This document shows, in pieces, positions 43,418-54,115 of a stretch of 64,000 nt of DNA. The DNA comes from an uncultured Nitrososphaerota archaeon (GTDB lineage: Archaea; Thermoproteota; Nitrososphaeria; Nitrososphaerales; CADDZS01). Every line of letters begins with the position of its first letter. Within the stretch, counting starts at the first letter, position 1. Both the position numbers and the translations under genes were made by a program. The stretch covers positions 288,001 to 352,000 of the forward strand of contig CAWCYI010000006.1 of NCBI GenBank assembly GCA_963799845.1, in the 5' to 3' direction. The notes under the pieces were generated by a model, which was given only the letters and a program-made list of their open reading frames with translations, made no database searches and had not been told where the DNA came from.

Positions 43418-44962
43418 TTACTGTTCGTCTTTCGAATTTTCGGAGGGAAGTTTTTCATCCGTAGCTGGCCGATTACTTTGAACAGATTCCTGTCCGTACA
43501 TCTTCAGCATCTCACGGATTACTTTGTCAGTTGTTTCTTTGTACTCTTCCTTATTCTTGATGCCTAGCAAATCAACAAATCCCTCTGCAACGAAGCTCAT
43601 GAGAGTAAGATCCCTATACATGCCAGGGATAGTCGCTAGCTGCGAAACATGCGGATGTGACAAATTCAGAATAATCGAATCCTGAGTTGTCATTACTGGT
43701 AGATCAGAGGGGCTCAGTTGAGCTTCTTTGATAGTTCCGAAGGCCGTTCTTGCTGCTCTTATCTCGCGGGGTAACCTGGGAGTTCCTGTAATTATTTTGA
43801 TCTGCCTTACCTTTTCCTTGCCCTTTGTGGGGAGTGCGACCTGAAATTGAGATGCAGCGAGCTGTTGCTCGTTCAAGACTTTGTATTCCGCAGGGAGTGA
43901 TATCTCTACAGTCGCAAGGGCTCTCTCCAAGACTTTTGCAAGTTTGTTCAGCGATTTCTGTACTAGTACATTGGAATAATGTGGAGTGTCCGGAATATCG
44001 TCAACGAGAGAATCAATCGCTTTCTTGAATTTGTGGTACATATCGTCTTCAACGTATGCACTTCTCCCCGTGACCAAAGTGAGATCTGTGTTGACAAATC
44101 CAGTAAGTGTCGGTCTCTTTGATATAACCTCGCGCTTCACCAATACTCCCCTGTTGTAAAATCGGATTGGTTTTCGATCTTCAACGCGATACGGATCAAC
44201 GAGGGTGATCGAGTATCCTTCTCCGGATCGTTCGTGCATAATTCCGGCCGGAAGCTCCGGGGCAATGGCTTCGTTCCCATTAACGAGAATCCTAAATTGC
44301 CAAGTCAGGAGAGGCGCGAAGGCAATGCTCACGTATTCGTAAAGTTTTGCGACGCTGAACGACTTGCGCAACTTTCGAAGATAGACCCTGGTACCATAAG
44401 TCAAGAACTCTCCCGCATCTTCAACCTCGATGGGCTCGCCTGTATCTATCGAACTTCTGATCAATTCGTCCGTCAGATGAACCTTCCACGTCCGCGGCCC
44501 TGGCCGAGAATAAACGTCAATCTCGCGAGCTATTTTGAACACTGAGAGGAAGCCGAGACCCTTTTCTCCTATGAAGAGCCTCCCGGAGTCGGAGGTTCCT
44601 TTATTCTGCTGTCTTTTCTCCGTCATTCCCTTCGTAAGAAAAGAGTTAAAGTCAGAAATGCCGTAGCCATCATCATCGATAAAACAACTATGTTCATTTT
44701 CGATTTCTATTCGAACTTTGTACGCATTGGCATCGTAACTGTTAGCGATTAGTTCTCGGAATGGATCATAGACGCTAGCATACGCTTTGTCCATAAGCTC
44801 GTCCATAATGCCTGAGCTAAGACGCACCCGAACGCTCTGTTTCTCAATAGGTTGAGTCTCATCGCTCGGTTTGCCAGCATATTTTGCCGCTTGCAACTTA
44901 TCTGACCGCTTCTCTAGCGGCTCATCCTTGTTGGTTGATATAGCGGGAAGGGTCGAATCCAA
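43418..44962 (-). CDS. GHKL (HSP90/MORC-like) ATPase domain protein
   Basis: RELIANSYDA (N box), DDGYGI (G1), IGEKGLG (G2), GT, and C-terminal LNLSHP. Confidence 0.85.
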   Translation of the reverse strand: MDSTLPAISTNKDEPLEKRSDKLQAAKYAGKPSDETQPIEKQSVRVRLSSGIMDELMDKAYASVYDPFRELIANSYDANAYKVRIEIENEHSCFIDDDGYGISDFNSFLTKGMTEKRQQNKGTSDSGRLFIGEKGLGFLSVFKIAREIDVYSRPGPRTWKVHLTDELIRSSIDTGEPIEVEDAGEFLTYGTRVYLRKLRKSFSVAKLYEYVSIAFAPLLTWQFRILVNGNEAIAPELPAGIMHERSGEGYSITLVDPYRVEDRKPIRFYNRGVLVKREVISKRPTLTGFVNTDLTLVTGRSAYVEDDMYHKFKKAIDSLVDDIPDTPHYSNVLVQKSLNKLAKVLERALATVEISLPAEYKVLNEQQLAASQFQVALPTKGKEKVRQIKIITGTPRLPREIRAARTAFGTIKEAQLSPSDLPVMTTQDSIILNLSHPHVSQLATIPGMYRDLTLMSFVAEGFVDLLGIKNKEEYKETTDKVIREMLKMYGQESVQSNRPATDEKLPSENSKDEQ

Positions 44963-45111: not shown

Positions 45112-47212
45112 TTAATCGCTCAGGGCATTGGCTAGTTCATGCTCGTTCGATGACGGCAGTTTGCATGCGAAATTTGAGCATACGAAGACTCGTGTCCTGC
45201 TACCTGACTCGTAAAGCCGATCTTGAACCATTGGAGAAATGCTCTCAATTTCCTTCTCTGCGAAAATTAAGACGGAGTTGGGGAGAAACTTGTTTCTAAT
45301 TACGGAAATCAAAGTCCTTGTTTCTGACGAGCCTTTCTTACCGGAGATGACAATTTCTTTCGGCTTATCGAGGAGAAATTCGAGCCCTACAAGCATTTCG
45401 GTAAAAGACGAGGGCTGTCGGGTTATCGGCTCCCAAAAAGCGAGGAAAGTATCTGCAGCGCAAGTTCTGAATTCTTCCTTTGTTGTGAACTCCGCCAGCC
45501 GAAGACAAACAAGCGCCGCTACCGAATTTCCAGAAGGCAGGGCGCCATCGAAACCATCCTTTGCCCTAACAATAAGATCAGCATCTCCTTCTCCAGTCTG
45601 GAAAAACCCTCCGGAGTTTTTATCATAGAAACTCGATATCATCGTCTTAGCTATCACCAGCGCCTTTTCCAGATATTTCGGATTAAATCCGGCTTCGTAG
45701 AGATCAATAAGCCCGTTTGCGAAAAAAGAGTAGTCCTCCAAGACAGACTTCGCCTTTGGATTCTCCGAGCCTGAATCTCCTCAACAGCCTGATGCCTTCG
45801 CCTGAATCACTTTCATTAAGATTTGCAAGCAAGAATTCGGCGCAGAAGACTGCCGAGGCAAGGTAACTCTCGTCGCCCAGAATCTGATACGCTTTGCTTA
45901 AGGCGGAGATCATCAGCCCGTTCCAGCCGGTCAGAATTTTGTCATCTGTGGGAGGCTTCGGCCGACGCATGCGGTGTTCCAATAGAACCTTCTTTGCCTT
46001 GGCGATCAGAGCACGTAGCTGGTCAGGATCAAGTCCGTCAGCGGTCGACTGATTCACCGGTCTGGAAGTTAGAATCGTTCTTCCTCCCTCGAAATTCCCA
46101 TCAGCCGTGACGCCGAAATATCTCGTGATCGCTGGGGACTCTTTCTCAGTGATCCCAGCTAACGAAAGCACCTTCGTCATTTCATCAAGAGTCCAAGAAT
46201 AATACGAACCCTCTCCTTCAGGGCTGTCGGCATCCTGCCCCGAATAAAATCCTCCCTCTTTGCTCCGCATTTCCCTCATCGCCCAATCAATGGTTTCCCT
46301 TACTATCCGGGAGTACTCCTCATTTCTTGTGATCAGGAATCCCTCGGAATACGAGATGATCAAAAGAGCGTTATCATAAAGCATCTTTTCAAAGTGCGGA
46401 ACAAGCCAGTATCTATCGGTGGAATATCGATGGAATCCGCCGCCAACCTGATCATAAATACCGCCCCTCATCATCGAGTCCAGAGTCTTCGAGACAGCGC
46501 TTAATGCTAGGGCAGAATTCTTCTCGTAGTAATAACGAGAGAGGAAAAAAAGGATCGATGGCGTCGGAAATTTCGGCGAATCGCCAAATCCGCCGTACCT
46601 TTCATCGAACGACCCCATAAGCGCCTCGTAGCACTCGTCGATAGGTGCCCAATTTAGCTTAGAATCTGGGCTTTTCTTAAAGTCGTACGACTCTCTGAGA
46701 GAACCTTTCATTTGGGTCGCCGAGTCTACAATTTTCTTCCTTTCTGATTTCCACGATTGAGAAATACTTCGTAGGACGTTCGAAAAGCTAGGCATCCCGT
46801 ATCGAGGAGTAGGAGGGAAGTAAGTCCCACCGTAAAAGGGGTCGAGGGAGGGCGTCAAGAATACGCTCATCGGCCAGCCGCCGGAACCGGTCATCGCAAC
46901 GACTGCCTTCATGTAAATCTCGTCAACGTCGGGCCTCTCCTCCCTGTCCACCTTGATGCTGACGAAATTCTCATTGAGCAATTTTGCGATTTCGGGATCT
47001 TCGAGTGACTCCCTTCGAAACACATGGCACCAGTGGCATGAAGAATAACCTATGCTGAGAAAGATAGGTTTGTTCTCGTGTTTAGCCTTTTCAAACGCTT
47101 CTTTGCCCCAGGGATACCAATCAACTGGGTTATAGGCGTGTTCTAGGAGATAGGGACTTTTCTCATTTATGAGACGGTTAGCTTTCTTATTGGATTCATT
47201 ACTCTGTGTCAT
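45112..47212 (-). CDS. YyaL/SPATA20-like thioredoxin (DUF255) plus alpha-barrel protein (frameshift near 45748)
   Basis: [64 protein letters not shown]. Confidence 0.93.
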
Positions 47213-48282
47213 TGATCGCAACCCGTTTTCTGCAACCATCTATACACTGTCCGAGAAGATCTTTTAGAAGCCAAAGCGATCTCATCATTACTATGACCTC
47301 GCTCTTTCATCTTTCGTGCAGATAAGATCATCCCATCAAAGATCTGCTTTTTCAATTGTCTTCTTTCCTGTCTGAAAGTGTAGGCGACCTCGGCCTCTTT
47401 GACAAACCTGTCACGTTCCACGCGAATCTCGTTTCGAAATGATCTGTAGACTGGCGCGGCTGAGCTCCAGTGCAGGTTACTCATTGCTTCAGCAAGCCTA
47501 GAGGCATTGACTTTTTCTTCATGCCTTAACCGAAGTTCAGACAATATTTTGATTGCTTCCAAGCCGCTCGCAGAAAGTAGGTAATAATCCTTCTTCCACT
47601 GATCGACTACCTTACAGATTCCTACGCTCATACCTCTCTTACCGAGTCCTTGTTTAAACAATTCCAGAATTGCTTTGTTTCTGTTTGAAAGTCCGAAAAC
47701 TACGCGGGTTTTTCCGCGCGCATCCCGAACTGCTATGTGACCTTCAGCGTCCGTGAATCCTGAAAGTGCGGCGTAGAACAACGAATCCTTCTCTAAATCT
47801 TCTCGACACAGGTGTTCTCGCCGGTTCAGAAGGTAGGAATAAGAATCATCAAGATCGCACACTATTCGCCAGCAATAGCCTGATCTAGTTCGGCATGGAT
47901 AGATAATCGGATGGCAAGCCTTTTCGAATAAACCATTCACTAATAGGAGCTGAGCGCGATGGGTAGTACTGACCGATACCCTAATTTTTCTGCCATGCCG
48001 ATTTGTCCCGAGATCGCCGAGAGCAAAAAATGTAATATATTTTTTGTCGATGCTATCTGCAGTTTTTACCTCGGCTTCGCTTGACATTCTGGAACACATT
48101 CGTTGGTTGAGAATTCTGTCCTATTCTTCGATTGCTTCACAGCTAAAAATCCAATAGCGGACAGAAAATTAACTACTAGGTTGATTTGAAGCGAGTATTC
48201 TGATTGAAAAAGTCCATGAGATGGCCTCATTAGCGATCTATCTGGAATACAACTTTTTCCCAAGTATGCACCAGTGGCATGA
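47027..48282. mobile_element. Endonuclease cassette bounded by 15-bp direct repeats (GCACCAGTGGCATGA at 47027-47041 and 48268-48282)
   Basis: Identical repeat encoding SCHWC in both yyaL 5' copies; 1241-bp spacing. Confidence 0.65.
47209..48099 (-). CDS. LAGLIDADG homing endonuclease with C-terminal HTH
   Basis: Degenerate motif 1 (TFFALGDL), motif 2 [20 protein letters not shown]-like [16 protein letters not shown]; its TGA overlaps the yyaL ATG (ATGA). Confidence 0.82.
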
Positions 48283-48462
48283 CTAGTATCCAATGCTCAG
48301 AAAGATCGGCTTGTTTTCGCGTTTTGCCTTTTCGAATGCCTCCTTGCCCCAGGGAAACCACTCGACGGGATTGTAGGCGTGTTGCTGAAGATAAGGACTC
48401 TTTTCGTTGATTAAATGGTTGGGCTTTGATTTCTCGGCCGGAGAATGCTTTTCTTCTGACAG
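48268..48462 (-). pseudogene. Orphaned, diverged 5' fragment of yyaL
   Basis: Translates [64 protein letters not shown], then homology stops. Confidence 0.88.
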
Positions 48463-48672
48463 ATGGATAATACCTTCTCTAAAATAAGCCAGAAGGAGAA
48501 TTCGTGTTTTAATTCTTGTGTCAGAAAAAACAGTGCAAAGATTGGATAATAATCTGCCAAAGACTCCAAACAGTGTAGCATATTTTTGGTCCGTCTATTG
48601 AGACCTTAAATTCTAGTTCCCATTGATTCATAAAGAAAAAAAATCGGTTTTGTCAAGTCTTCGTCAATTCTC

Positions 48673-49290
48673 CTAGATTTTGTTGCTGTCAAAATTCGTC
48701 AGCTGTCCCAAGTCATTCGGTTGCAACCCCTTTTTGTTAATTTTCTCTAGCGAAAAAACAGACAGGTATTGAAAAGTGTCGAGCCCTAGTTCAACGAGTC
48801 TATCTTCGGTTGTTTTCCCTATAAAGAAATTTGGCTTTCTCCATGAGGACTCTATATTTTTGACCGTTGCAATGATTGACTGATTAAGTTCATTCTCTCC
48901 CAAAAGATTGTGGGCGTATTGGTTTCGTATTCTCTGGAAACATCGAATGTTCTTAACGAGCTTGGAATCAGACTCTAGAATATCCAAAGCTTCTAGGATT
49001 TTCAGCTTATTTTCAAAAGAACCGATATTTTCATCATCGATTATGAGTTTTGGATTTGGAAAAGAGTGCTTGATCATTTCATTAATCCAATATTCTATGT
49101 ATAGATGGATTAGGAGTGCCTTCGATCTCAAATCAGAGACACGGTTAATGTCAGCATTAAATCTACTGAAGATACCTGAAAAAGTCGAGCTCTTGTGTTT
49201 CTTCAGCGGTTTGGCTTTCGCATTTCCTTTAGACAAAATATTCCAAACTCCCCTTGTTTTTGGGTTTCTTTGCTTCGTTAACTTTGGCAT
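48673..49290 (-). CDS. MtlR-like / HEPN-superfamily protein
   Basis: HLYIE helix, GSFENKLKIL, R-x4-H motif RIRNQYAH; AT-rich. Confidence 0.6.
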   Translation of the reverse strand: MPKLTKQRNPKTRGVWNILSKGNAKAKPLKKHKSSTFSGIFSRFNADINRVSDLRSKALLIHLYIEYWINEMIKHSFPNPKLIIDDENIGSFENKLKILEALDILESDSKLVKNIRCFQRIRNQYAHNLLGENELNQSIIATVKNIESSWRKPNFFIGKTTEDRLVELGLDTFQYLSVFSLEKINKKGLQPNDLGQLTNFDSNKI

Positions 49291-49414
49291 TCTGAATGAA
49301 TGTTATCCACTTGACTGACTCCTAAGGCTTGCTGCAAGGCTGTCCCTTCGCCTCGCGACTCCAGTCAGTGTTGGAGTCGCTACTTGTTCGTTCGCAAAAT
49401 GAGGTGTAGGAGAA

Positions 49415-50539
49415 ATGATGAGAAATAAGAGTAAGAAGATTATTCGAAGAAGTATGAGTAGCAATTGCGTAATCGCAGGAATTGACCTGGGCGATAGTAG
49501 CAGCCTTGCAACCGTTCTCTCTCCAGTCGGAGAGATCGCAGACAGGTTCTCCTTCCAGATGGATGAAGCGGGGTACGCCCTGTTCTCAGACAGAATTCCA
49601 AGGGATGCGAGGTTAGCTTTTGAAGCTACGAGCTCGGCATATCCGTTCTCAAGAATGCTCAAGGAACTAGGATACCACGACATAACTGTAGCTCATCCTA
49701 CTGAACTTGCCTGGATCGTCAGATCAAAGAAAAAGAATGATAGAGCTGATAGCTTAAAGATAGCCAAGCTCCATCTAGCGGGTCTGTTGCCCGAATCTCA
49801 TCTTTTGGCTCAAGAGGAGCAGATAGAAAGAGACCTCTTGATTCAGAGGGTAAAGCTCGGATCAGAGATAGGTAAAATCAAGAGCAGGATCATAAGCTAT
49901 CTCAAGAGGGAAGGAGTGTTCGAATCTCTCCCGAAGAGCAAAGATAACTTCTCTGCTAGAAGGAGGGTTGCAATCGCCTCAATGAAATTCAACGATGACA
50001 GAGACCTCGTGCTGAAAACCATGGTTGAGAGACTCGAATTCATGGAGAAGCAGTGCGAGCCGTTGGAGCAGAGGATAATGAAGAACGCGAAGGACAACAA
50101 ATACGTCAGGATGATAATGTCTATTCCTGGCATAGATTACTACCTCGCTTCGCTATATTCTTCGTACATCGGAGATCCACATCGCTTTCCGTCTTTTGAT
50201 CACGTCGCAAGCTTCCTCGGGATAATTCCAGAGAGCAAGGATAGTGCAAACGTCAGGAGGAGAGGAAGAATGTCCAAGGACGGACCTTCCATTGCGAGAT
50301 GGGCTCTGGGCATAATGACCGACACGGTGCTGCTCTACAATCCGAATATCAAGGTATACTACAACGGCGTCAAGCAGAGGACGGGTCGCGGGAGCTACGC
50401 CCATGTGCTAGTGATGAAGAAGTTAGCTCGCATGATCCATCACATGATGATTACGGAGGAGAACTACAAGTGGGAGAACGAGGCGCTAACAGAAGCAAAG
50501 ATCTCAAGACTCGATGCCGCTGGAGGTGAATCAGCCTAG
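49415..50539 (+). CDS. IS110-family DEDD recombinase/transposase
   Basis: GIDLG, AFEAT, KKNDRAD, SIPGI, ASFLGIIP..KDS, GRMSKDG; start may be 49454. Confidence 0.93.
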   Translation: MMRNKSKKIIRRSMSSNCVIAGIDLGDSSSLATVLSPVGEIADRFSFQMDEAGYALFSDRIPRDARLAFEATSSAYPFSRMLKELGYHDITVAHPTELAWIVRSKKKNDRADSLKIAKLHLAGLLPESHLLAQEEQIERDLLIQRVKLGSEIGKIKSRIISYLKREGVFESLPKSKDNFSARRRVAIASMKFNDDRDLVLKTMVERLEFMEKQCEPLEQRIMKNAKDNKYVRMIMSIPGIDYYLASLYSSYIGDPHRFPSFDHVASFLGIIPESKDSANVRRRGRMSKDGPSIARWALGIMTDTVLLYNPNIKVYYNGVKQRTGRGSYAHVLVMKKLARMIHHMMITEENYKWENEALTEAKISRLDAAGGESA

Positions 50540-50773
50540 CGGAACAATTGGGATGGAGTTGCAGGCCGAACCATTTGGAGATAATTGAGCCATAGAGCTT
50601 TTCCATTTGAGTGTGGCGCCCCGCCTCCGTTAAATCGTCAGAATACGCCTAGCCTTGTACTAGAGCGTTTATCGAGTGTATGCGGAAAAGGTGAGGGCAG
50701 GTCTGTTCAGCTAGCCCTAGTCCAAACGCTAGCTTGATAAGCGGGATGAACGATCTCAGAGATAGAGCAGGTT
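50540..50773 (+). ncRNA. Candidate bridge/seek RNA region of the IS110 element
   Basis: Non-coding 3' end containing GGAGATAA (50577-50584, complement of core plus right flank) and TGAGTGT (50608-50614, matches the element end). Confidence 0.4.
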
Positions 50774-51043
50774 AGGCGAAGGGACAGCCCTAAGCCTTAG
50801 ATGAGTGTTATCTCCTTTGATCTCAATTCCGCATTTCTCCCGAACGCGAATATCCAATGTTTATGAATCCGATTGAGACATCTTTGCGATTGATATTTGT
50901 AAGATTCCCAATATTAAGGCCATAGCTCGAAAGCTCCATTCCTGAACGGAAAATTTGAGCTGACGAAAATTTACACGGAGAAATTTGTCTCGAATTGACG
51001 AAAACTTGACAGAACCAAAAAATCTCTGCGTTCGCACACGAGG

Positions 51044-51155
51044 AGCTGTTTTCTGAGCGAAGAGCTACGTTCAAGCTCTGTAAGCTCAGAAGAGCTTGAA
51101 ACGAGCTGAACGGAGCTCAGAGAGCTCAGAACGAATTGAACGGAGGCACAAAGCT
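51044..51155. repeat. Approximately 10-bp-phased AGCT array
   Basis: AGCT at 51063, 51074, 51083, 51093, 51104, 51114, 51123, plus 51044 and 51152. Confidence 0.8.
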
Positions 51156-51530
51156 GCTATAGAGGGTTACTCGACAATTGTCGAGTTGATCATTTCGTAT
51201 TGGATTTTCGAGTTTTCGAGGATGTTCTGGAAATTCACCCCTCGATTTACCAGATCATTGCTCGCGAACTATACATCAGAGCTGAATTTTCTTTGGGTTT
51301 CTGCGCGCGTGAGTAATTTTTGGCCGAATAGCTCGGTTTCAAGCTATTAAATAGAGAGGGGCCCCCTAAGGGGAGTCCTGCAACCGTGCGTGTGTACTCG
51401 TTGGATTGCTTTCTATCAGCTTGTTAAAAGCTCATCCGGCAATTCTGAGCTTGAAATGCCAAGTTATTCCACGCAATGTAATTCATAAGGAAAAAGAGAA
51501 ATTGACTCATATCAGGAAGCAAGATGGGAC

Positions 51531-51902
51531 ATGGATCTCTCCCCTGATAGCAAATCTCGAAACTTTAGATCTGTAATATGCTACAGAATTTCTAACATTA
51601 TGGAAAGAGCCGTGGTGGAAGAGATATGTTCTCGAAAAGGAGTCACCCTACTCTACACACAGGATAGTTCAGAATTGCTTCGGTTTGGCGATGGATACCT
51701 AGTCATCTGCGATCTTGCAAGTCTGAAGAAAGATGATCTTGCCGCTCTGGTCAAGTCAGCAAGAACGAAGAATTGTCGAGTTCTGGGGAGCTACCCTCAT
51801 GTCTCCAGAAAAATGGGTGAAACGGCGCTATCTGAAGGTGTAGATTACGTTGTGCCAAGATCTGCATTCAAAATAAAGTTAGAGCAGATATTGACGAACT
51901 AG
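51531..51902 (+). CDS. Receiver-like small alpha/beta protein
   Basis: LVICDL, VLGSYPHV, ALSEGVDYVVPRS resemble stand-alone receiver-like domains. Confidence 0.55.
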   Translation: MDLSPDSKSRNFRSVICYRISNIMERAVVEEICSRKGVTLLYTQDSSELLRFGDGYLVICDLASLKKDDLAALVKSARTKNCRVLGSYPHVSRKMGETALSEGVDYVVPRSAFKIKLEQILTN

Positions 51903-52171
51903 GTCTTTGAGGCAACCTTGAGTCTTTCCATATTTCTGATCTCCCTGGCTTTCAAAATCGGACCGATGGTATCAAGCCAGGAATCTCCTTCTTTTATCCT
52001 CCATTCGTTCAGATACTCTTGAACGAGATTGTCAGAAGTTGCTAGCCCAATCGGGAGCTTGTAAAAGAACGGGCAGTCAAACATCAAGAGTACAACCTTA
52101 TCGCCGTTTTCGTCCAATCCTGGAACGCGCTCATCTTCCGCTGCGTTGCAGAACGGGCATCTGATGGTCAA
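51899..52171 (-). CDS. Small hypothetical protein with CPFC / FDCPF motifs
   Basis: ORF convergent with the previous gene, Cys motifs. Confidence 0.55.
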   Translation of the reverse strand: MTIRCPFCNAAEDERVPGLDENGDKVVLLMFDCPFFYKLPIGLATSDNLVQEYLNEWRIKEGDSWLDTIGPILKAREIRNMERLKVASKT

Positions 52172-52275: not shown

Positions 52276-54115
52276 ATGGATATCCAATTGCTGAGATATT
52301 CTGTTTCCATGCCGAGCCCAAATACGCATTATTTTGAAGTGAGCATATTCGTCAGCGATTTCAAGAAAAAAGTCCCTGACCCTAGCAAGTTGCATTTAGT
52401 CATGCCCGTCTGGACTCCGGGCTCTTATCTTGTCAGAGAGTTCTCGAAAAACGTTCTGGATCTTGATGCTAGATTGGTCGATGTCAACAAAAAGGCAAGA
52501 TCATATAAGGTAAGTAAGAATGAATGGGTAGTTGAAACCAATGGTTCTGAGGAAGTAGAAATCAATTACCGAGTGTACGCCTTTGAACTTTCGGTAAACA
52601 CTAGCTATCTCGATGACAAGCACGGGATCATCAACGGTGCAAGCATATTCATGTACATTCAAGGCATGGAGAACATCGAGGGAGTTCTAGAAGTCCATCA
52701 GTTCGAGGAATGGAAAAAAATCTCGACCGGTCTCCAAGAGATTGAGAACTCGGATTCGAAGTCCTCCCAGTTTCTAGTTCCGAACTATGACAAACTGGTC
52801 GATTCCCCGATCGAGATAGGGAATCAAAATCTCCACTCGTTTACCCTCAATGGAACCAAGTACGAAGTATCAATATTCAGCATAAGCAAGTTCGATGAAG
52901 TGGCATTCGTTTCAGATATCAGGAAAATCGTCGAAGCAACGACGAAAGTATTTTCGGAAGTTCCCTACGACAGGTACGTCTTCATCGTCGATTTTACCGC
53001 TGACAATTACGGAGGCCTGGAGCACCTCAACAGCACTTACTGCCTCGCGTCGATTTTCAGACTGGAACCTCCTCAAGAGTATAGACAGTCTGCTGTCGTT
53101 GTTTTCGCACGAATTTTTCCACGCGTGGAACGTCAAGAGGATGCGCCCCAAAGGCCTGGGGCCCTTCGATTACACGAAGGAGACATACACCAAATCACTC
53201 TGGATCGCTGAAGGAATAACGAGTTACTACGACGACCTGCTTATCAGACGGGCCGGGATATTCAGCGTTGGAGAGTACCTTGATGCCTTCAGCTCGAACA
53301 TCAGTCAGATGAAGAGTCTCCCAGGTTCCAGGTGGCAGAGCGCACAGGAAGCGAGCTTTGACACTTGGATCAAACATTACAGGCAAAACGAAAATTCTCC
53401 GAACGTCTCATTCTCATATTACACTCAGGGCGCTGTCATCGGCTGGATGCTTGACATGGAAATCAGGAGGAGCACCGGCTCTTCGAGGACTCTGGATGAC
53501 GCGATGAGAAAGACCTACGCCGAGACGTACTTCAATGAGAACAGAGGGTTCTCAGACGAGGAGTTCGAACGAATTTGCGAGGAAACATCCGGATCTAGCG
53601 CGGTCGCGGCCATCTTCGAGCAGAGAGTCGAGGGAAGGACTGATGTTGATTTCGACAGATATCTTGCTTATGCCGGGTTGAAGCTGGTACCGAAAAAAGA
53701 GGAAAAAGTGAGTGGTTTTCTGGGAGTCAGGCTGAAGGAGGAAACAGGGCGTGTGACGGTTATAACGGTTCTTTCTTCCTCCCCGGCAGAGGTTGGAGGC
53801 CTCGCGCCCTCAGATGAGATCATAGGGGCAAATCATATTCGTATGGATAGAGCCAGACTCTCCTTCTATTTGTCAAACAGCAAACCAGGGGATCTTATCA
53901 TCCTGTCTGTAGCGAGATTGGGTTCCATCTTTCAAGTAGAGTCGCGACTGACCGAAAAACCGGTTCTGGAATTCAGGTTAACAAAAAATGATCAAGCAAG
54001 TCCAGAGGAAAAACAGCTTTTCGAAAATTGGTTGGGTGAGAGCTGGTCTGAAGAAATCAAATTTGAGGATTACAGGCCGTCCCCGGTAAGGACGAATGTT
54101 TTGGATTATGTTTGA
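52276..54115 (+). CDS. M61 glycyl aminopeptidase with PDZ domain (frameshift near 53085)
   Basis: MPVWTPGSY, LVDSPIE, GGLEH, HEFFHAWN, LWIAEG.TSYY, SYY..G, C-terminal PDZ. Confidence 0.92.

Follow-up and report, generated by a model that had tools for sequence, protein, structure and literature searches.

Free-standing homing endonuclease genes are found in phages, as with the seg and mob genes of T4 and F-CphI of cyanophage S-PM2, and fungal mitochondria contain endonuclease open reading frames (ORFs) that come with duplicated gene ends, for example at atp6 of Allomyces. To our knowledge, archaeal homing endonucleases are riders in ribosomal RNA (rRNA) introns or inteins. Here we describe a locus in a 64,000-nt stretch of an uncultured soil archaeon of the Nitrososphaerota (contig CAWCYI010000006.1; the whole stretch is hereafter called the window), where a LAGLIDADG endonuclease-type gene stands directly upstream of yyaL and is itself preceded by a truncated second yyaL 5' end, which we call the orphan. 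The closest analogue of this arrangement is found in yeasts of the genera Torulaspora and Lachancea, in the WHO elements beside their FBA1 gene (Coughlan et al. 2020, PMC7282813). There, a LAGLIDADG-type gene lies next to its target gene and splicing is not needed, the gene end on the cut side is replaced or mosaic, a truncated old end is left behind and trees built from the different parts disagree (PMC7282813); each of these traits has a likely or partial counterpart here. WHO proteins are intein-derived zinc-finger fusions that are active in diploid meiosis, exchange the 3' gene end and accumulate clusters of gene fragments (PMC7282813), whereas the present locus encodes a putative compact I-DmoI-like enzyme with an added helix-turn-helix (HTH), lies in an archaeon and involves the 5' end. 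We interpret the locus as a one-sided repair scar left by a free-standing homing endonuclease that would target the codons for Cys-His-Trp-Cys (CHWC) and His-Val-Met (HVM) in yyaL, a reading to which we give slightly better than an even chance.

On the minus strand, the locus contains every element named in an original prediction made from the letters of the window: an orphan 5' end, an in-frame TAG, a spacer of ~170 bp, a 296-aa ORF, an ATGA overlap and a 15-bp repeat with copies 1241 bp apart, all where that prediction placed them (Table 1). It had described the orphan as a 59-codon yyaL N-terminus; the frame is indeed open from 48462 to 48286, but homology to yyaL spans only ~48426 to 48268 and the fragment has no recognisable start codon. 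The TAG (48285-48283) replaces a Ser codon of the relatives, and the Ser-Cys-His-Trp-Cys codons follow it at 48282-48268. Homology ends 0-3 nt past the last Cys codon, so the orphan stops at the CxxC codons, as predicted. Together, the two 5' regions form a direct repeat of 153 nt with 78% identity and a spacing of 1241 nt. The window contains exact copies of the 15-mer at two places only, 48268-48282 and 47027-47041, against 0 copies expected from 100 shuffles. The yyaL ATG at 47212 overlaps the TGA of the endonuclease ORF (ATGA), an arrangement that may permit co-translation of the two genes. GC content differs mildly (43-46% in the endonuclease gene vs 48-51% in yyaL), and a promoter and terminator scan of the locus with a bacterial consensus was uninformative.

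Could the assembly have joined two strains or species? It is of the metagenome type and has other apparent indels, and one short-read contig joins 46957 to 48389. The short-read contigs came from four public runs, all of one study, with X1 as the possible source sample. Those from runs X1, X2 and X3 tile positions 45782-48775 with zero differences and even depth, including the TAG and both junctions, and the orphan is confirmed without differences by contigs from X1 and X2. Since one flank of this joint is just 23 letters long and then runs on into dissimilar sequence, the joint most probably represents the yyaL of another organism, and we did not count it as an empty allele. A mis-join, the first alternative raised with the original prediction, is unlikely on these data, and we regard an artefactual origin of the locus as extremely improbable.

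The functional gene belongs to the YyaL/DUF255 family based on its N-terminal Thioredox_DsbH domain with the CxxC motif (Table 1), and yyaL was found in 42 of 61 relatives. The second 5' end was predicted to continue into the full gene; it does run into yyaL, but the window reads yyaL as two frames of 511 and 209 aa. A contig from X1 (record 3, depth ~4) omits one base at 45747, and the reading without this base matches the yyaL of relatives, whose open frames are 673-778 aa long. The frame split is therefore probably an assembly indel and the gene probably intact, as judged from this one contig at depth ~4. In two genomes of other families, the yyaL matches contain one in-frame TAG each (G025, C3:44420-44950; G021, C85:3893-4183); the TAG in G025 falls after residue 120 and hence not at the position of the orphan's TAG.

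The 296-aa ORF (48099-47209) has its own ATG and TGA, lies upstream of yyaL and not inside it, and is present in a single copy in its own genome. Its matches to Pfam fall under the curated cut-offs (LAGLIDADG_3, 17 vs 22.5 bits; HTH_23, 19 vs 24.6 bits), while a relative, P0002, clears both and paralogs also pass the profile. NCBIfam gave no match for the ORF, and its sequence matches in the Protein Data Bank were weak (E = 0.14-0.5). An AlphaFold model built from seven homologs (pLDDT 89.8) comprises two alpha-beta-beta-alpha-beta-beta-alpha halves packed via two motif helices and, beyond this core, a long helix (residues 211-266) and a terminal HTH. Foldseek matched the model to I-DmoI (TM 0.65), I-Tsp061I, I-OnuI and I-AniI at E ~1e-9, all of them monomeric LAGLIDADG enzymes; the best-fitting were the archaeal I-DmoI and I-Tsp061I, at 14-21% identity. 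With these two the ORF product shares the two-motif monomer architecture. In the alignment rows covering the motifs, D29 is conserved in 7 of 7 and position 119 is E or D in 7 of 7 (D in G005). We read these positions as the catalytic acid pair, a reading that uses our own mapping rather than a residue-level structural alignment.

I-DmoI and I-Tsp061I lie within rRNA introns, and LAGLIDADG ORFs inside archaeal group I introns are reported in PMC6125680. Here, by contrast, the gene has its own start and stop, the protein carries the extra long helix and HTH, and positions 46500-49000 have no Rfam match at E ≤ 1 and hence no group I or II intron model. We rejected an intron at this locus on the same Rfam result and because the in-frame TAG would make any spliced product useless. 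The predicted fold, the Foldseek matches and the Rfam result together support the original view of a LAGLIDADG endonuclease-type gene that is free-standing and not borne by an intron or intein, and the modelled structure suggests that its product is a nuclease.

To describe relatives, we refer to the genome of the window as G000 and to compared genomes by other G numbers; f1 and f9 are families of the order, and g1 and g2 are genera within f1. At a membership threshold of E ≤ 1e-25, the endonuclease subfamily was present in 11 of 401 genomes of the order, including 3 of 13 from f1 and 8 of 97 from f9. All 11 copies sit directly upstream of yyaL, bearing out a predicted association of endonuclease homologs with this gene, and of the 10 loci outside G000, 7 have an endonuclease stop that reaches or overlaps a candidate yyaL start. 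A single copy, with five stops, is a pseudogene, and the intact ORFs are 31-55% identical. The distribution is patchy: 10 carriers require 10 changes on the tree of the yyaL body.

Syntenic comparison in both families revealed empty as well as occupied alleles, as had been anticipated. In f1, 3 carriers contrast with 8 empty sites; at empty sites of G006, G007, G009 and G012, yyaL directly adjoins a small Cys-rich gene, in some cases accompanied by an ORF of 114-123 aa. An indel of ~1.1 kb containing the endonuclease gene separates G005 from G006. In f9, the flanks of the carriers G314 and G071 are syntenic with those of G020 and G035 and enclose an insert of ~1 kb that the latter two lack. 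Homologs of the two conserved upstream neighbours seen in the window, the 123-aa ORF and the Cys-rich gene, lie next to yyaL or next to the endonuclease-yyaL pair in G005, G006, G007, G009, G010, G011 and G012. Because the upstream neighbour differs between f1 and f9, the endonuclease gene follows yyaL. Outside G000, the 10 carriers have plain insertions between yyaL and its upstream neighbour, and it is these ordinary loci, lacking an orphan, that the free-standing endonucleases of phages match: an intergenic position beside a conserved target gene, presence or absence between syntenic genomes, and adjacent co-conversion. Most of the enzymes in phages belong to the GIY-YIG, HNH or Endo VII types, whereas the present one is a LAGLIDADG protein in a cellular archaeal chromosome.

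A position and an overlap with yyaL conserved across two families could also point to a domesticated protein, that is, a DNA-binding partner or regulator co-transcribed with yyaL, in which case the orphan would stem from ordinary illegitimate recombination with foreign DNA and the protein would have made no cut. The added HTH domain, the intact ORFs at their low identity and a large paralog family conserved beside other genes are compatible with this idea. It sits poorly with a gene found in so few genomes of the order although yyaL is common, with the number of changes on the body tree and the pseudogene copy, with the retention of both catalytic-type acids, and with an orphan that ends exactly where the alleles of carriers deviate; we consider domestication quite unlikely.

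A profile search of 1.84 billion representatives gave 1107 relatives at E ≤ 0.001; of 150 matches listed, 28 extend as far as the C-terminal HTH portion of the profile and the remainder are paralogs with an N-terminal extension. Scans of metagenomes and genome contigs found only distant paralogs, none of them beside yyaL. The paralog family, which joins the N-terminal extension to the same LAGLIDADG core (for example L007, 1480-2544, minus strand, and L008, 1288-2253, plus strand), is present in 43 of 97 f9 genomes at E ≤ 1e-30 when yyaL-linked copies are included, often in multiple copies and in some cases with stops. The paralogs are not adjacent to yyaL; in G020 and G045 they are conserved beside a ferredoxin-like gene and a second neighbour that may resemble ribose-5-phosphate isomerase. 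In two carriers, G045 (L006, 2339-2600) and G218 (L058), yyaL has an open, conserved frame ahead of the CxxC motif, but no ATG, GTG or TTG precedes the conserved N-terminus and the frame overlaps the tail of the endonuclease gene, which may reflect an unusual yyaL start or coupling of the two genes.

We then compared the two 5' ends in the window. By tblastn, the orphan and the functional copy are 85% identical over 53 aa, with 45 of 53 residues in agreement; at the nucleotide level, 123 of 159 positions are identical (a difference of 23%) and 28 of the 36 differences fall at third codon positions. This bias implies that both copies diverged as working genes, and the locus therefore joins the alleles of two lineages rather than a gene and its decayed local duplicate, consistent with the original claim of different origins. 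The alternative, in which the yyaL 5' region was duplicated locally in tandem and its upstream copy then decayed, would explain a direct repeat with this spacing and a stop codon in the upstream copy. It conflicts with the third-position differences and the number of residues kept, as well as with the grouping of the two copies with different members of the genus, and it leaves the endonuclease gene between the copies unexplained; we judge it very improbable.

Based on the yyaL body (residues 120-502), G000 groups with G004 (100/95) inside g1, and its CarB protein is 93% identical to that of G003, 87% to G004, 86% to G002, 83% to G005 and G006, and 75-80% to other f1 genera. The assembly of G003 contains no yyaL. 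In a tree of codons 1-56, G002 is the partner of the functional copy (94/82) and G006 that of the orphan (83/85); in approximately unbiased (AU) tests, p was 0.049 against a union of the orphan with G004 and 0.205 against a union of the functional copy with G004. Informative sites in nt 4-162 of the functional gene are also predominantly native (28 G004-type vs 13 G007-type). Over codons 10-100, by contrast, G011, G010 and G007 are the companions of the functional copy (87/92), and a grouping of this copy with g1 is rejected by the AU test at p = 0.025, a value that is somewhat post hoc because the test followed an inspection of sliding windows. The g2 signal over these codons is due to a patch at ~codons 55-80: 12 of 12 consecutive informative sites in nt 165-207 are G007-type, and in codons 56-71 the functional gene matches G007 at 43 of 48 nt compared with 34 of 48 for G004. 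The residues after CHWC show a derived state common to G007, G010 and G011, and E24 is common to g2.

From the 5' trees and site counts, it follows that the functional gene is a mosaic, mostly native-looking with a foreign-type patch where the orphan ends. Weak tree signals favour a native functional copy and an orphan from another branch of the genus, the opposite of the original prediction, in which the orphan was to group with the lineage of the body and the new 5' end was to be foreign; only ~codons 55-80 look clearly foreign, not the whole 5' end. Upstream of the orphan, beyond a miniature inverted-repeat transposable element (MITE)-like repeat, come the ancestral neighbours: a peptidase-like gene, the Cys-rich gene and the 123-aa ORF. 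In a tree of its C-terminal part, the peptidase-like gene, presumably of the M61 type, places G000 with G002 and G004 (84/86); beyond this native part the peptidase flank gave no polarity signal, and the contigs of G002 and G004 stop short of the informative flank. G005 and G006 are too diverged (75% nt identity) for the mapping of conversion tracts.

The mosaic bears on a closer parallel with WHO elements, namely a dedicated cassette that regularly orphans the resident 5' end and supplies a foreign, resistant one, leaving a native orphan; in a variant, the element could itself carry the orphan as a left homology arm. The anatomy mirrors the yeast WHO/FBA1 system (PMC7282813), the native upstream neighbours are found on the same side as the orphan, and the foreign-type patch of the functional gene adjoins the junction, with E24 also shared with g2. 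Yet a fragment at each integration and clusters of repeated fragments, the hallmark of WHO elements, are not seen, the fragment being present in 1 of 11 loci. The WHO trait of a cut-side part with its own history may hold here for the patch, while codons 1-56 agree with the body; their grouping with G002, like the body and CarB, the placement of the orphan with G006 and the excess of G004-type sites all argue against a foreign 5' end. Such a cassette is unlikely in our assessment, and the proposal that the element is regularly built to bring a replacement 5' end does not extend to the other 10 carriers, which have no orphan within 1.5 kb.

Two further processes resemble parts of the locus. The mitochondrial endonuclease ORFs of fungi likewise combine an endonuclease ORF with a foreign gene end and displace the old end as a pseudogene, but they are organellar, act at the 3' end and are often in-frame fusions. 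Homology-facilitated illegitimate recombination combines one homologous anchor with one illegitimate joint, which fits the junction at 48268/48267; it requires no site-specific nuclease and leaves the position of the joint at the CxxC codons unexplained.

To characterize the candidate target site, we compared the triplet after CHWC between carriers and non-carriers. HVM was found in 0 of 11 carriers, compared with all 15 genomes of other families and 6 of 8 f1 non-carriers. Among the f9 genomes with the motif, HVM occurs in 19 of 75, all of them non-carriers (19/67 vs 0/8 carriers). The three columns after CHWC are invariant outside f1 and f9, and in f9 they hold 7, 6 and 4 kinds of residue. 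As a lead, the recognition site may span the CxxC motif and the following codons, with gene-linked variants protected from cleavage. A separate tally of yyaL residues 63-65 in f9 (loci L092-L121) gave at least 15 different triplets among 34 genomes, while the same residues were invariant in 15 genomes of other families.

Under the repair-scar reading, the enzyme would cut yyaL at or just after the CxxC codons in alleles that read HVM, and changes in the codons next to CxxC would shield those alleles that are linked to the gene. Its usual spread would proceed through repair with homology on both sides and would be scarless; because two-sided homologous repair leaves no scar, the other 10 loci would be accounted for. 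At the present locus, an exchange between diverged species may have joined two yyaL alleles in one cut-and-repair event. One side of the break would have been repaired by homologous crossing-over, and the other end, stopping at the CxxC codons, would have ended up in an illegitimate joint 168 bp ahead of the endonuclease gene, giving a truncated, dead yyaL 5' end beside an intact gene. Both the cut position and the repair route are our reconstruction. There are two options for polarity: the cassette may have invaded a naive gene, with the crossover at ~codons 70-105, or a sensitive allele may have come in and been cut by a resident enzyme, its 5' part then being captured with a crossover in the upstream flank. 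The weak tree signals favour the second.

Several observations weigh against this reading. The link between carriage and a non-HVM triplet loses significance once kinship is allowed for: in a kin-aware test, 9 independent pairs included ~3.7 concordant and 0 opposite, the rest being ties (median p = 0.125). In f9, the triplet is variable even without the endonuclease gene, and the proposed target at the CxxC codons is drawn from a single junction. The identity of the 15-nt repeat could largely reflect conservation of the motif, and the spacer (48100-48267) showed no similarity to any compared locus by blastn or tblastx. An orphan is found at only 1 of 11 loci: in the other 10 carriers, the 1.5 kb searched upstream yielded no yyaL fragment, seven f9 carriers gave only the main yyaL match at E ≤ 0.01, and sensitive tblastn searches for orphans or endonuclease remnants in the upstream regions of G005, G011 and G045 and in empty sites returned noise only. 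Placement of the orphan over codons 10-100 is weak, with three AU tests that reject nothing. In the endonuclease tree, G000 is closest to P0002, whose protein is 55% identical, and then to G011, ahead of G005 (96/89); an AU test did not reject the alternative (p = 0.44). Finally, ORFs that stay intact at such low identity over long times would fit a host function too.

A broader proposal is that a free-standing LAGLIDADG family of Nitrososphaerota chromosomes homes on the redox codons of yyaL, that an arms race has made the three residues after CxxC hypervariable in those families that harbour the element, that WHO-like orphaning arises when flanking homology is missing and that this is the first such case for an archaeal chromosomal protein-coding gene; we put this forward tentatively and consider it doubtful as a whole. 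Our full-text searches, one of which gave organellar cases only, found no report of a free-standing LAGLIDADG gene tied to an archaeal cellular protein-coding gene and nothing that connects DUF255 to homing endonucleases. Should the enzyme cut yyaL, the locus would exemplify how a selfish nuclease drives natural gene flow from one archaeal genus to another, would provide a sequence-level explanation for a hypervariable spot beside an invariant active site and would offer a compact scaffold of the I-DmoI kind that is new and bears an extra HTH, and the orphan would be a rare natural record of double-strand-break repair in archaea. If it does not, the gene pair would still be a conserved, unexplained two-gene unit.

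Table 1. Features of the yyaL locus and its surroundings, in window coordinates.
Feature	Position	Strand	Evidence or remark
Orphan yyaL 5' fragment	48268..48462	-	TAG at 48285-48283; 15-nt repeat copy at 48268-48282
Spacer between orphan and endonuclease gene, 168 bp	48100..48267	-	origin untraced by blastn/tblastx
Free-standing two-motif LAGLIDADG endonuclease-type gene with C-terminal HTH, 296 aa	47209..48099	-	predicted fold, ORF
Full-length yyaL, DUF255 thioredoxin-like	45112..47212	-	Pfam Thioredox_DsbH, E=1.4e-76
15-nt repeat copy in functional yyaL (Ser-Cys-His-Trp-Cys codons)	47027..47041	-	sequence
g2-type patch at/after CxxC codons, ~codons 55-80	46970..47050	-	informative sites; limits approximate
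MITE-like repeat, one end	48606..48645		remainder at 51017-51443, ~2.4 kb inserted between the parts
IS110-family insertion sequence, 1512 bp	49307..50818	+	Pfam DEDD_Tnp_IS110, Transposase_20
123-aa ORF, conserved upstream neighbour of yyaL in f1	51531..51902	+	homologs in relatives
Small Cys-rich protein, conserved upstream neighbour of yyaL in f1	51899..52171	-	homologs in relatives
Divergent peptidase-like gene, ancestral outer neighbour, two overlapping frames here	52276..54115	+	synteny

Directly downstream of yyaL, a gene at 43418-44962 (minus strand) encodes a 514-aa protein with an HATPase_c_3 domain (E = 1.6e-12). On the other side, the small Cys-rich gene showed an internal TAA in the genome search. 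The genome is 86.7% complete in 9 contigs, and together with the split frames of the peptidase-like gene and this TAA, that suggests assembly indels rather than decay. The assemblies of G002 (C182, C26) and G004 (C89, C78) break in the same stretch, from the peptidase-like gene to the ORF upstream of yyaL, possibly due to repeats or strain variation at the locus.

The MITE-like repeat is ~430 bp long, and over 40 complete or incomplete copies of it (71-94% identity) are spread through the genome contigs. Its two parts abut in other copies but are split here by ~2.4 kb containing a 205-aa ORF and the IS110 element. The 205-aa ORF (48673-49290, minus strand) is low in GC (36-40%) and had no match in Pfam or NCBIfam. 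A second copy of the IS110 element, on contig C4 (1287262-1288773), is 100% identical, so the element looks recently active.

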